NCBI GenBank assembly: GCA_965248445.1
Contig: CBDFJG010000001.1
Coordinates: 352,001 to 416,000 of the forward strand
Direction: 5' to 3'
Length of the DNA: 64,000 nt
DNA from: Planctomycetota bacterium
GTDB lineage: Bacteria > Planctomycetota > JAJSAM01 > JAJVHW01
How positions within the stretch are numbered: the stretch's first letter is position 1; every line of letters starts with the position of its first letter. This document shows positions 45,001-48,000 of this stretch, piece by piece. The position numbers are program-made.

Positions 45001-48000
45001 GCTCTACGGCTCGTTCGAGTCGCAGGACGACGGTGTCGAGTTCCGCGAGCGACCCACCCGGCGCGTGCGGGTGCCCGCCGGGAAATCGATCGCCGCCGAC
45101 ATCCGGTTGCCTGCGCTCGTGACCGGAGACCTGACACTGAGCGTGGCGCTGGGTCAGCCCGGTCCTACGCGCCTTCGCGCGGAGTCGGTGACCGTCAAGG
45201 TGACCGCGGCGCGCACCGCGAGCGTGCCGACGGCCGTGGTGGTGACCTCGCGCGGCGAGATCACTCTGCGGATCGACCCACTCACGGACTACGGCGCGGC
45301 GGCCCAGTTCTGGGCGCTCGCGCGCTCAGGGTTCTACGACGGCCTGCCCGTGCACCGCGTGATCCCCGGACGGCTCGCGCAGACGGGCGACCCGCGCGGC
45401 AACGGCACCGGCGACGCCGGCTGGTTCGTTCCGGGCGCCGGATCGGCGACGAAGTTCGCAGTCGGCGACGTCGGGCTTGCGCGCGGCGCCCACAGGGACT
45501 CTGCCAGCTCGCAGTGGTTCGTGGTGCTCGCCGACGACGGTCCCAAGGGCAAGTTCGCGCGGGTCGCAACGGTGATCTCGGGTCTCGACGTCGCCCGCGC
45601 GCTGCGCGCAGGCGACATACCCGACCGCGTCAAGGCGATCCGCGGCGAAGTGCGCTAGCGCCGGCTAGCGGACGCTGCGCAGGAAGTCGAGGTACGTCTC
45701 CGGCGTGCGTGCGTTCGACCAGTCGGCGGACGCGAGGATCTCGCCCGTGTGCGGATCGACGATCACGTGCCGCGGGATCGAGATGTTCCCGACGAGTTTC
45801 TTCATGCGCGCCCGCTGCTGTACGTCGAGAGGTGCGATGGTCGGGTCCTGGATCCAGATCTGCATCAGCTCGAAGCGGTCGAGTTCCCGGCGAACTTCCG
45901 GGGACGTGGAGATCATGATCTCCAGCGCCGCGCAGTTGATTCAACCCTTGCCGGTGAAGTCGAACAGCACGTAGCGGTCGGCGGCAATCGCCCGTTCGCG
46001 CGCGCCTTCCCAGTCGTTTCGCGGCCACTCCAGGTGCGCTGTGTCACCCGCGGAGCCCCCATCGCCGACGATCCAGAGATCCTTCGGCTCGGTCTGGATG
46101 AAGCCCTCGAGGTCCGACGCCAGCGGGCGGCCGAACAGCCCCGGCACGATGTAGAGCCCGAGCGAGAAGAACATGACGGCGAACAGCATGCGCAGGGTGC
46201 CGACGGTCTCCACCTTCGTGTCCTTGGGCAGCGAGAAGATCCCGAACAGGTACATCGCCGCTGCGAACGCGCACGCCGCCCAGATCGCGAGCACCAGCGT
46301 TCGCGGCAGGATGTCCCAGTCGTGGTTGATGGCGACCGTTCTGAAGAACTTGAACGCCAGTCCGAACTCCACGAATCCCATCGTGACCTTGACCGCGTTC
46401 ATCCAGCCGCCGGCCCGCGGCATCGTCTTGAGCAGCGCCGGGAACAGCGAGCAGAAGAAGAAGGGCACCGCGACGGTGACCGAGTACGCGAGCAGTCCGA
46501 TCAGCGCGGCGGACTTGTCGCCTTCCTCGAACGTCGTGAACATGATCGCGAGGAACGGGATCGAGCAGGAGAACGAGGTCAGGGCGAGCGTCATCGCCAT
46601 GAAGAACGGCCCGATCAACCCGGTCGCCGAACTGCGCTTCGTCGTGGCGTCGGTGAGGAACCCCGGAAGACGCAGGTCGAACAGGCCGAACAGCGACAGC
46701 GCCAGCACGACGAAGAGCACGCCGACGAACACGTTGAACGCATCGCCGCGTGCCATCACGTCGAGGCTCGCTCCGAAGATCAGACCGACCACTGTCAGCG
46801 TGAAGATGATGCCGAACGCGTAGACCAGCGCCTTCGGCAGGACGGCGCCCTCCTGCTTGCTGAAGAAGCTCACGGTGACAGGGAGCAGCGGGAACACGCA
46901 CGGGGTCAGCAGCGTGATGAGACCCCAGAAGACGCCGCTGCCGATGATGCCGCCGACGCCGCCGGACATCTCCTCGGGTTCGCCGGCGCCGGGCACGACC
47001 GGAGACGCGCCGTTGCCGCCCGTCTCCGGCCCCAGCCATTCCGTGACGACGAACGACGCCTCGATCGGCCGCGTCTCCTCGGGCAGGCACTGCATCGGAT
47101 CGCACGCCATCGCGCTGAACGAGCCCCCGATCGTGCGCGGTCCGAGCGCCGCGTCCGGCGCAACCGTCACCGCGATCGAGAACGTCACCTCGGCCTCGTG
47201 CTCGATCGTGATCAGATCGGGCATGTCGGGGATCCGTGCGATCTCGTGCGGCTCCGGAAACTCGCTGAGCGCGCCCGCGGTCAGGCCCTCCGGCAGATCG
47301 AGCTCGATCCGCGGCGGCTGGCCGTACTTCAACCCGTAGAGATGCCAGTCCGGGACGATCTCGATCTTGACGCGAACTTGCGTCGTTCCGCCGGCCGGAA
47401 CGGTCGCCGGGTCCGCCGTGACCGAGACGATCTCGAACTTCTGCTCCTCCGCGAGCCCGCCGCCAAGCGGGTCGTCCTGCGCGATCGCGAGACCCGACCA
47501 CAGCGCACACGCGGCGGCGAGGGGCAGGGCGATCTTGCGAAGCAGGGCGTGGATCTTCATGGACCCGGGTCTCCAGGGTGGGTCAGGGGCAGAGTCAGCG
47601 GCAGGGTCAGGGGCGCGAGAACTCTACTGCGACGACGCGAACCACGAGACGGTTCACTCACTTGCAGCGCAGGGTCATCGCGATCTCGCGGAGACGCTCC
47701 TCGGGGAGCGTGCCCACCAGGGCGCAGAGCGTGTCGGTCTCCGGACAGATGTACGTCACGACGTTCCGGCCGTTCTCCTCGGCGATCCACCAGTCCAGCC
47801 CGTCCCGCTCGACGTGGCGCCGGAACGACGGCGAGGAGCCGATCAGGTCGCTCCAGATCACCGTGAAGCCCTCGCCCCCCCCGCGCTCGTAGCGAGCACG
47901 CACGGCGCGGGCGCCGGCGCGGTATCCGACGTTCACGAGGTCGCCGACGCCGGTCTGCGAGTACTCGAGCAGTTCGATCGGCGGCAGGACGCGGTTCAGC

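Follow-up and report, generated by a model that had tools for sequence, protein, structure and literature searches.

The window analysed here, a stretch of 64,000 nucleotides from a Planctomycetota bacterium, carries on its reverse strand a gene for a DsbD-type protein-disulfide reductase that standard gene calling divides in two (Table 1). When positions 45665-47560 are translated with TGA read as selenocysteine (Sec, U), the frame gives 631 residues and closes on a terminal TAG, and its sole in-frame stop is the TGA at codon 540. Under translation table 11 the same frame falls into two pieces, 45941-47560 (539 aa) and 45665-45916 (83 aa), the latter starting at an ATG. An earlier survey of this genome had proposed that the gene calls g00368 and g00367 are one gene, encoding a 631-aa read-through product with a single TGA at codon 540. 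Our translation agrees in both respects, since the two table 11 fragments match the two gene calls and the read-through frame is continuous. Gene calls truncate the TGA-form gene in every public record that we found: only three relatives were recovered from the public protein collection, and each terminates at the TGA (539, 683 and 646 aa).

Table 1. Features of the reductase gene and its surroundings (positions in the window; residue numbers refer to the 631-residue protein)
Feature	Position	Strand	Details
Whole gene, DsbD-type protein-disulfide reductase	45665..47560	-	631 codons; ATG 47558-47560; TAG stop 45665-45667; one internal TGA
Signal-peptide-like N terminus	47477..47560	-	Residues 1-28; hydrophobic 9-28, end AIA-Q; model helix 3-26; cleavage inferred
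Alpha domain	47042..47437	-	Residues 42-173; nDsbD-like beta-sandwich; C153 (47102-47104), C158 (47087-47089)
Membrane domain DsbD_TM	46127..46957	-	Residues 202-478; invariant C221 (46898-46900), C332 (46565-46567)
Gamma domain	45668..46024	-	Residues 513-631; thioredoxin fold, Thioredoxin_7 / cDsbD type
TGA codon 540, read as selenocysteine (predicted)	45941..45943	-	First position of U-I-N-C; context FDFTGKGUINCAALE
Codon of C543, resolving Cys of UxxC	45932..45934	-	Invariant in 125/125 homologues
SECIS-like hairpin 1	45903..45929	-	7-bp core UGGAGAU/AUCUCCA, loop CAUG, 4 further pairs
Second conserved hairpin CCCGG/CCGGG	45886..45902	-	Abuts hairpin 1; 97.5% of cells paired, 8 f1 sequences
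Upstream ORF, 259 aa	47658..48437	-	No Pfam match
ECF-type sigma factor (Sigma70_r2, r4_2)	48427..49437	-	Overlaps start of 259-aa ORF

All seven relatives from the family of this genome (hereafter f1) have a conserved counterpart of the C-terminal half of the 259-aa ORF upstream of their DsbD gene, and the order sigma factor, 259-aa ORF, DsbD is the same in six of the seven, within the flanks available. The ORF is possibly an anti-sigma factor, to judge from its position only. The genome, at 92% completeness, contains genes for cytochrome c assembly, and ResB (PF05140) was not found in it; the gene described here is its only match to DsbD_TM (PF02683).

The survey had described the product as a DsbD-type transporter with DsbD_N, DsbD_TM and C-terminal thioredoxin domains, and this alpha-TM-gamma architecture is borne out by Pfam, by an AlphaFold2 model and by comparison with solved structures. 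The Pfam ranges it gave (DsbD_N 53-166, DsbD_TM 210-405, Thioredoxin_7 513-603) were reproduced exactly. DsbD_TM reaches 77.9 bits (cut-off 27.1); in the full-length scan DsbD_N (24.7 against 25 bits) and Thioredoxin_7 (26.2 against 27) fall just under their Pfam cut-offs, and the C-terminal 161 aa taken alone pass that for Thioredoxin_7 (29.8 against 27 bits). CcdA (5vkv) matches residues 211-398. The model has a mean pLDDT of 83.7, with most of the alpha beta-sandwich (42-173) above 90, and Foldseek pairs this domain with the nDsbD structures 1vrs_C, 1l6p and 1jpe (TM 0.59-0.69; 0.54-0.69 when 6dps is included). The gamma domain is paired with 3f9u (TM 0.74) and with the gamma domain of Escherichia coli DsbD, 1uc7 (TM 0.72). 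Within it, U540 sits between a strand (530-537) and a helix (541-552), with D534 at -6 and E547 at +7. The two membrane-domain cysteines are invariant in all 125 homologues compared, and C153/C158 are present wherever the alignment spans them, except in one Cys-form row.

Textbooks present DsbD as the route that takes reducing power across the inner membrane. E. coli DsbD (DipZ; structures 1L6P/1JPE, 1UC7/2FWE and the alpha-gamma complex 1VRS) has the same three-domain order as the planctomycetal protein and the same six redox positions, namely the alpha pair, two membrane cysteines and the gamma-domain xxC pair. A profile built from 27 gamma domains for the PDB search matched E. coli cDsbD at 9e-11 in an alignment where the U column coincides with the leading Cys of CVAC, and the acidic positions of cDsbD, Asp at -6 and Glu at +7, are kept in the planctomycetal domain. 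The two proteins differ in the alpha domain, where the planctomycetal cysteines are spaced CxxxxC, unlike those of E. coli, and at the attacking residue, which is Cys461 in E. coli and a predicted selenocysteine (U540) here, so that the gamma motif is UxxC rather than CxxC. Searches of the PDB with phmmer, using the full protein (E <= 0.01) or the gamma domain alone, did not retrieve E. coli DsbD, and with PRK00293, the DsbD model of NCBIfam, the score was 99.9 bits, so far below the cut-off of 330 that we speak of a DsbD architecture and not of an E. coli-type orthologue. Among solved structures the gamma domain has its closest relative in PDB 3F9U (profile E-value 1e-21), which is the C-terminal domain of a Bacteroides fragilis protein annotated as putative, exported and related to cytochrome c biogenesis; its motif DFTGYGCVNC aligns on the planctomycetal DFTGKGUINC, with Cys in place of Sec.

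According to the survey, the in-frame TGA occupies the first position of the gamma-domain UxxC. Both the cDsbD alignment and an alignment of homologues support this placement, the TGA column being the one in which relatives carry the leading Cys of their thioredoxin CxxC. Among 125 distinct homologues the codon at this column is TGA in 41 and TGC or TGT in 84; in a narrower set of 30 relatives' loci, 17 have U and 10 have C, and three do not span the site. Chance can be set aside, because the TGA recurs at the exact column in 41 distinct homologues. At least 87 codons are open 3' of the TGA in all 41 TGA forms, E547, like C543, is invariant in 125/125 homologues, and mean pairwise identity within f1 is 47% downstream of the TGA against 34% in the alpha domain. 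Judged from these sequence comparisons, the region 3' of the TGA is constrained at the protein level.

The survey's counts of one in-frame TGA in 7/7 genomes of f1 and in 5/5 of a second family (f2), and of no stop in 4/4 genomes of a third (f3), were obtained again. Its restriction of the TGA to two families of the order stands as far as f1 and f2 do carry it, but understates the spread: among 301 genomes sampled evenly from the phylum, 74, belonging to 29 family codes, have the candidate TGA form, and so do three Armatimonadota MAGs. Wider U forms were sought with a degenerate DNA pattern demanding D-F-T-G-x-x-TGA-x-N-C, which makes the sample so obtained a biased one. The TGA form was found in 34 independently assembled public contigs, whereas 46 of the 80 pattern matches were chance hits in unrelated ORFs; one locus among these 46 that appears to be a true case cut short (L127) was left out of the pattern-derived counts. 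Among the matches listed by a search for related loci with full-length alignment there were only Cys forms, mostly from Bacteroidota, where full-length Cys homologues are common; that close TGA forms are missing from the list is probably an effect of the stop, at which tblastn alignments break. For the Cys forms in f3, loss of the Sec trait was considered as the cause and rejected, selA being present in 4/4 f3 genomes. In a FastTree phylogeny the f3 proteins adjoin a Bacteroidota-type Cys clade (support 91), away from f1 and f2, and this placement suggests that they may represent a different lineage of the gene.

The machinery for selenocysteine insertion that the survey had listed (tRNA-Sec, SelA, SelB and a SelD with its own UGA) was found in full and above the curated cut-offs. 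The tRNA-Sec lies on contig C2 at 455518-455613 (Rfam 68.3 bits against a cut-off of 47; anticodon tca by ARAGORN), SelA, SelB and SelD score 502, 336 and 386 bits, and the SelD gene carries one TGA. Across 41 genomes selA is present in all 17 with the TGA form, and the TGA form occurs in none of the six that lack selA, a weak test of co-occurrence because 35 of the 41 carry selA anyway.

In bacterial SECIS elements the apical loop usually lies roughly 16-37 nt from the UGA. The 7-bp hairpin that had been noted about 17 nt past the UGA was recovered as UGGAGAU/AUCUCCA, its stem beginning 17 nt and its loop 23 nt after that codon, and a second hairpin directly abuts it (Table 1). In f1, 87.5% of the cells of the structure are paired, a share that drops to 30-47% once the pairing partners are slid, and four of 14 pairs vary on both sides in a compensatory manner. 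The covariation score was reached by 0/500 shuffles, a figure inflated by the use of the same eight related sequences to derive the structure and to test it. On a broader scale, the fold z-score of the region +9 to +58 averages -1.26 in 41 U forms and -0.03 in 84 C forms (Mann-Whitney p 8e-7, a value that ignores kinship among the sequences), and the Cys forms of the same family from Bacteroidota and Acidobacteriota do not show this downstream enrichment. The hairpin of the gene itself is modestly better than its shuffles (z -1.56, with 12/200 shuffles as good; z -2.06 in a second run). Its position and sequence differ between f1 and f2, and the z-scores in f2 are weak (+0.56 to -1.55). An Rfam scan of 45600-46100 at E <= 10 matched no family in a collection that covers bacterial SECIS elements poorly. 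A candidate 'fossil' hairpin, GGAAGA...UCUUCC, in the Cys forms L024 and L026 was dropped, its z-scores giving no support.

Read-through of the UGA might insert a residue other than selenocysteine, or one in addition to it: Trp or Cys by near-cognate decoding, for example, or Cys by the Sec pathway under selenium scarcity. We consider this improbable: although the inserted residue is not distinguishable from sequence and Cys is functional at this position in 84 homologues, the genome holds a full Sec system, a hairpin with compensatory changes follows the codon, structure is enriched in the TGA forms only, and this nucleophile of the thioredoxin fold is a classic site of exchange between Sec and Cys. 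Moreover, TGA serves as an ordinary stop elsewhere in the genome, ending four of seven other genes examined. A still smaller probability attaches to the TGA being a true stop, in which case the product would be a 539-residue protein of alpha and membrane domains, and the 91 codons downstream either a remnant in decay or a small ORF of its own. The protein does end at this codon in gene calls and in the public collection (three relatives), and an ATG-started 83-aa ORF does exist downstream; however, that ORF has no signal peptide, first strand or first active-site residue, the supposed remnant has kept an open, conserved frame in 41 distinct genomes, C543 and E547 being invariant, and the TGA recurs precisely at the active-site Cys column and is confined to selA-positive genomes. 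A recent nonsense mutation or a sequencing or assembly error (a pseudogene), with which one genome alone would be compatible, has a negligible probability and is already refuted by the same codon at the same column throughout f1 and f2, by the independent public contigs and by the candidate forms across the phylum.

We therefore hold it to be highly probable that this is one gene, encoding a reductase of DsbD architecture with a predicted selenocysteine at the gamma-domain motif U540-I-N-C543; the internal TGA almost certainly encodes that residue, at the key reactive position. Behind a signal peptide, the alpha and gamma domains would both face the periplasm, on either side of the membrane domain in the sequence, and the protein would carry reducing power to the cell envelope. 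Selenocysteine would be inserted at UGA 540 by SelA, SelB, SelD and tRNA-Sec, with help from the hairpin that lies a short way 3' of it within the coding region. If the protein works as E. coli DsbD does, thioredoxin in the cytoplasm would reduce the membrane pair C221/C332, which in turn would reduce the gamma-domain selenylsulfide; the U540 selenolate would then attack the alpha-domain disulfide C153/C158, and the alpha domain would reduce periplasmic clients in cytochrome c maturation, disulfide isomerisation or repair. We infer this topology and the path of electrons from cytoplasmic thioredoxin to periplasmic clients from the shared architecture and from the order tmDsbD, cDsbD (gamma), nDsbD (alpha), clients that passages of one study give for E. 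coli (PMC2631958). The same passages assign the last internal step to Cys461 of cDsbD, which reduces the Cys103-Cys109 disulfide in nDsbD (PMC2631958). The survey had concluded that the relay ends in a selenol, and here we depart from it: U540 aligns with Cys461 and would serve the last internal step rather than the end of the relay, and because the alpha pair C153/C158 is also kept, the client-facing end is presumably still a pair of thiols. Those passages further report for Cys461, a residue whose controlled reactivity is well studied, an abnormally high pKa of 10.5, raised by Asp455 and Glu468 (PMC2631958). The selenol of U540, next to which D534 and E547 are kept, should be largely ionised at neutral pH and be a better leaving group.

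More tentatively, and with rather less than even probability, many Planctomycetota may run their envelope thiol-redox on selenium. On this reading a selenolate would carry out the final intramolecular transfer in the sole DsbD-type importer of reductant that this genome encodes, and Sec-DsbD may feed exported thioredoxin-fold proteins with Sec at their own active sites. Sec would take over from the pKa gating needed by Cys461 of E. coli DsbD, and the relay would be faster and more resistant to oxidation in an oxic periplasm. Envelope redox homeostasis, envelope repair and cytochrome c maturation would in turn hinge on the selenium supply of these bacteria. A widespread natural Sec at the equivalent of Cys461, with the flanking acids kept, would also offer a setting provided by nature in which to ask why cells bear the cost of Sec: exchanges in both directions, U540C and C-to-U, would allow rate, redox potential and resistance to over-oxidation to be compared in a defined intramolecular relay.

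Two catalogued selenoprotein families invite comparison. The 'Thiol:disulfide interchange protein' family (PF13098) is alike in name and in its thioredoxin-fold UxxC, but is defined by Thioredoxin_2 and represented in the review by WP_011366075.1; the planctomycetal gamma domain scores 15 bits against the cut-off of 27 for PF13098, so that the two are set apart by domain assignment only. Neither of the two papers describing that family mentions a DsbD or membrane domain for it. Of the catalogued selenoproteins, TsoB (NF045694), which resembles a rhodanese/DsbD fusion, alone has a DsbD-type membrane domain; its model matches the planctomycetal protein in that domain only (residues 209-471), and the 109.6 bits obtained lie far below the cut-off of 805. 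According to Table 1 of the review, TsoB combines a rhodanese domain with a UxxxxU motif that holds two Sec, whereas the planctomycetal protein has one predicted Sec, in its C-terminal thioredoxin domain, and no rhodanese Pfam match. Sec-DsbD is absent from a 2026 list of 119 selenoprotein families and from NCBIfam, and the list of Planctomycetes selenoproteins in S9 Table of PMC4807772 has no DsbD entry; two entries there are named 'thiol-disulfide isomerase-like thioredoxin' and were compared with Sec-DsbD by name only. The predicted Sec-containing DsbD is common in Planctomycetota and missing from the selenoprotein catalogues examined. Since gene calls truncate it, current annotation of Planctomycetota understates both their selenoproteome and their capacity for envelope redox chemistry; with a curated model, about one in four of the genomes sampled from the phylum would be corrected (the 74 candidates among 301).

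Seven further Thioredoxin_7 ORFs have a TGA at the active-site position, and at least five of these have signal-like N termini.

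Read with TGA as selenocysteine (Sec, U), window positions 45665-47560 of the reverse strand hold a single frame of 631 codons closed by TAG. Its sole internal TGA is codon 540 (45941-45943; context FDFTGKGUINCAALE), and translation table 11 breaks the frame into two ORFs of 539 and 83 aa. Pfam places DsbD_N at residues 53-166, DsbD_TM at 210-405 and Thioredoxin_7 at 513-603 of the full-length protein, exactly the ranges of the survey's finding, with the two outer domains slightly under their cut-offs. The C-terminal 161 residues alone pass Thioredoxin_7 (29.8 versus 27 bits) and do not reach Thioredoxin_2 (15 versus 27 bits). 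We regard the feature as real, and the survey's reading of one predicted Sec-containing DsbD as essentially correct.

A six-frame search of the source genome and 40 relatives (41 genomes) gave a match in 36 of them. The distribution reported by the survey was recovered, with one TGA within the match in 7/7 genomes of the source family (f1) and 5/5 of a second family of the order (f2), and a match without stop in 4/4 of a third (f3). One TGA is likewise found in four further Planctomycetota families (genomes G020, G027, G039 and G040). In the aligned frames, all 17 TGA-bearing loci share one TGA column, which corresponds to the first Cys of CxxC in ten other loci; three loci leave the site uncovered. 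Within f1, mean identity is higher 3' of the TGA (47%) than in the alpha domain (34%).

We also scanned one genome per prokaryote species for the degenerate DNA pattern D-F-T-G-x-x-TGA-x-N-C, which yielded at least 118 matching stretches. Among the 80 loci examined, 34 are DsbD homologues whose similarity continues across the TGA, belonging by record title to Planctomycetota (30, including Gemmataceae, Isosphaeraceae, Pirellulaceae and Planctomycetaceae), Armatimonadota (three) and one other bacterium; the remaining 46 match by chance, in short frames unrelated to DsbD. The pooled set comprised 131 homologues spanning the membrane domain and the Sec/Cys site (125 distinct), of which 47 carry TGA (41 distinct, six duplicates being dropped) and 84 carry Cys, encoded by TGC and TGT in 42 cases each. 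C221, C332, C543 and E547 do not vary across the 125 distinct homologues, and no TGA form has fewer than 87 open codons 3' of the TGA.

Both the Sec machinery and the 7-bp hairpin about 17 nt past the UGA that the survey had described are borne out. With 68.3 bits the tRNA-Sec exceeds its cut-off (47), and ARAGORN gives it a length of 96 nt and the anticodon tca; SelA (502 bits), SelB (336 bits) and SelD (386 bits) each exceed their curated cut-offs; because SelD has an in-frame TGA of its own, this selenophosphate synthetase is also a predicted selenoprotein. The selA gene was found in 35 of the 41 genomes, including all 17 with the TGA form, and the TGA form occurs in none of the six selA-less genomes, a split with a chance of about 3% (hand calculation) on the assumption of independent genomes, which in fact they are not. 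The hairpin (UGGAGAU/AUCUCCA, loop CAUG) begins 17 nt past the UGA; four more pairs extend its stem, and a second hairpin (CCCGG/CCGGG) lies directly 3'. The source sequence itself folds at -29.2 kcal/mol (z = -1.56; 12 of 200 shuffles equally good). Across eight f1 sequences, 87.5% of cells are paired versus 30-47% with partners slid by 1-3 columns, both sides have changed in 4 of 14 pairs and the covariation score is matched by 0 of 500 shuffles, the structure being scored on the same related sequences from which it was derived. In f2 a different small hairpin (CCUCG-UGGAA-CGAGG) with weak z-scores lies nearer the UGA, and no Rfam family matches the region around the TGA. In 50-nt windows starting at +9, compared with dinucleotide shuffles, TGA forms (n = 41) have a mean z of -1.26 with 46% below -1.5, versus -0.03 and 6% for Cys forms (n = 84; Mann-Whitney p = 8e-7, uncorrected for kinship). 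GC-rich Cys forms (n = 35, mean z -0.08) fold no better than shuffles either.

An AlphaFold2 model built from a 23-row alignment (mean pLDDT 83.7, pTM 0.64) resolves four parts (see table). Residue 540 occupies the canonical active-site position, preceded by strand 530-537 and followed by helix 541-552. Hydropathy indicates a signal-like segment, seven clear membrane segments and a weaker one at about 385-405, which is helix 385-412 in the model; the predicted topology is compatible with the eight helices of DsbD. In Foldseek searches against the PDB, the C-terminal domain resembles 3f9u (TM 0.74), E. coli DsbD-gamma (1uc7, 0.72) and DsbH (2ju5), and the N-terminal domain resembles DsbD-alpha of E. 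coli and Neisseria (1vrs_C, 0.69; 1l6p, 0.62; 1jpe, 0.59; 6dps, 0.59) and ScsB-N (6c29, 0.36). The membrane domain matches CcdA (5vkv) in sequence. A profile of 27 gamma domains retrieved 3f9u (1e-21) as well as the E. coli cDsbD structures 1uc7, 2fwe and 1vrs_D (about 1e-10), aligning the U column with the first Cys of CVAC, the Asp of D-F-T-G with the E. coli Asp at -6 from the active-site Cys, and E547 with the Glu at +7. The NCBIfam DsbD model missed its cut-off widely (99.9 versus 330 bits), none of the NCBIfam selenoprotein 'exception' models passed, and the TsoB model (109.6 versus 805) matched only the membrane domain. Because the NCBIfam scores lie below cut-off, we file the protein as a DsbD architecture rather than an E. 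coli-type orthologue.

In E. coli DsbD, electrons flow from cytoplasmic thioredoxin through tmDsbD, cDsbD and nDsbD to clients, the last internal step being the attack of cDsbD Cys461 on the Cys103-Cys109 disulfide of nDsbD (PMC2631958). Asp455 and Glu468 raise the pKa of Cys461 to 10.5, and because of this high pKa free cDsbD is unreactive until docked on nDsbD (PMC2631958). In our protein, Sec is aligned with Cys461 and the acidic neighbours are retained as D534 and E547. A selenol has a pKa of about 5, much lower than this thiol, so that the U540 selenolate would be present at neutral pH despite D534 and E547, even if the acidic pair added some two units. The U540-C543 selenylsulfide would be a better electrophile and leaving group toward the membrane Cys pair; with Sec at this position, both half-reactions would run faster and irreversible over-oxidation of the site would be less likely. 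Sec would thus carry out the last transfer inside DsbD. Contrary to the survey, a selenol is not where the relay ends, since the client-facing pair C153/C158 is sulfur and clients would meet this pair after the U540 step.

A search with the last 231 residues against the source genome and 300 genomes sampled evenly from the phylum (E <= 1e-8) found matches in 121 of 301 genomes. In 74 genomes from 29 family codes the match covers the site and contains exactly one TGA (counted by match span, not by aligned column); in 35 it crosses the site without a stop, and in 12 it does not reach across. For 125 proteins we built a tree with FastTree, masking the Sec/Cys column; it is unrooted and so gives no direction of change, and its sampling is biased because Sec forms came by pattern and Cys forms from among the protein-search matches listed. 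The f1 and f2 proteins group in a clade made up of Sec forms throughout (13 rows, support 99), and other Sec forms fall mostly in Planctomycetota subclades, each well supported but only weakly joined (support 31). The Sec/Cys label requires at least six changes, and well-supported branches impose at least three of these. The f3 Cys forms (loci L022, L024, L025 and L029) lie beside a Bacteroidota-type Cys clade (support 91), apart from the f1/f2 Sec forms, a hint that f3 carries a separate lineage of the gene and did not simply exchange Sec for Cys. Loss of the Sec trait is ruled out as their cause, since the f3 genomes have selA. Sec forms also occur in Armatimonadota MAGs (L143, L156, L182), two of which cluster (support 87) with a Sec form of Planctomycetales plus one Cys form; this grouping may reflect transfer between phyla.

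Full-text literature searches for DsbD with selenoprotein or selenocysteine, supplements of older metagenome surveys, which may list an unnamed case, lying outside their scope, returned no paper on a Sec-containing DsbD as judged by titles and the opening of abstracts. A 2026 review (PMC13188914) lists no DsbD and no Thioredoxin_7 UxxC entry among the 119 selenoprotein families of its Table 1 and never names Planctomycetes. A selenoprotein family 'Thiol:disulfide interchange protein' was described in Geobacter and Syntrophus, with no membrane domain mentioned in the sections available (Zhang 2006, PMC1794560), and the 13 selenoprotein candidates of a Planctomycetes genome paper (PMC4807772, including S9 Table) do not include DsbD. 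Residues 400-631 retrieved three relatives and no others from a public protein collection, all ending at the TGA. The gene is a predicted Sec-bearing variant of a well-known machine, widespread in one phylum, absent from the catalogues checked and systematically mis-annotated.

Besides the DsbD gene, the genome (92% complete) has no second PF02683 match; it has two Cytochrom_C_asm genes, and a genome search found no ResB. Among f1 relatives, the upstream 259-aa ORF recurs in 7/7, the sigma factor in 6/7 (within available flanks) and the cyclophilin in 6/7; none of the three was found beside the gene in f2. Judging from gene order alone, the ECF sigma factor may regulate the DsbD gene, possibly as a sigma/anti-sigma pair with the 259-aa ORF. 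Envelope-related neighbours lie at window positions 37594-44747 and 50021-53698: two Kdo/WaaP-family kinases, GT2 and GT9 (heptosyltransferase) glycosyltransferases and a 1225-aa Ser/Thr protein kinase. Many relatives carry a separate alpha-like gene immediately 5' of the Sec-DsbD.

Positions of protein segments, neighbouring genes and related genes (G, relatives' genomes; C, contigs)
Feature	Position	Strand	Remark
N-terminal helix	residues 3-26		AlphaFold2 model
Beta-sandwich	residues 42-173		AlphaFold2 model
Helical membrane block	residues 202-475		AlphaFold2 model
Thioredoxin fold, beta-alpha-beta-alpha-beta-beta-alpha	residues 517-628		AlphaFold2 model
ECF sigma factor	window 48427-49437	-	upstream of DsbD gene, same strand
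259-aa ORF	window 47658-48437	-	directly upstream of DsbD gene; no Pfam match
Cyclophilin gene	window 44549-45658		downstream of DsbD gene, converging
SelD	C3:1080793-1081719	-	one in-frame TGA
DsbD_N-like gene	G005:C56:52603-53100		5' of Sec-DsbD
DsbD_N-like gene	G001:C35:35005-35484		5' of Sec-DsbD
DsbD_N-like gene	G007:C6:6681-7175		5' of Sec-DsbD
DsbD_N-like gene	G004:C242:31656-32003		5' of Sec-DsbD
DsbD_N-like gene	G002:C54:33748-34119		5' of Sec-DsbD
DsbD_N-like gene	G014:C164:3236-3727		5' of Sec-DsbD
Alpha-like match	C3:1133565-1134050		only extra one in source genome; other contig than DsbD gene
Thioredoxin_7 ORF	C1:172801-173034	-	active-site TGA
Thioredoxin_7 ORF	C3:1611566-1611820	-	active-site TGA
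Thioredoxin_7 ORF	C3:1539388-1539633	+	active-site TGA
Thioredoxin_7 ORF	C4:454011-454271	+	active-site TGA
Thioredoxin_7 ORF	C4:1613109-1613273	-	active-site TGA
Thioredoxin_7 ORF	C4:1756341-1756520	-	active-site TGA
Thioredoxin_7 ORF	C1:331076-331288	-	active-site TGA

The source genome has 11 Thioredoxin_7 matches, eight of them with an in-frame TGA. In the seven ORFs other than DsbD, the TGA lies at the active site (motifs UGAC, UDPU, UVPU, UPPC, UPHC, UVPC and WUPGK). At least five of the seven have a hydrophobic, signal-like N terminus, and together they appear to form an exported group of selenoproteins with a thioredoxin fold.
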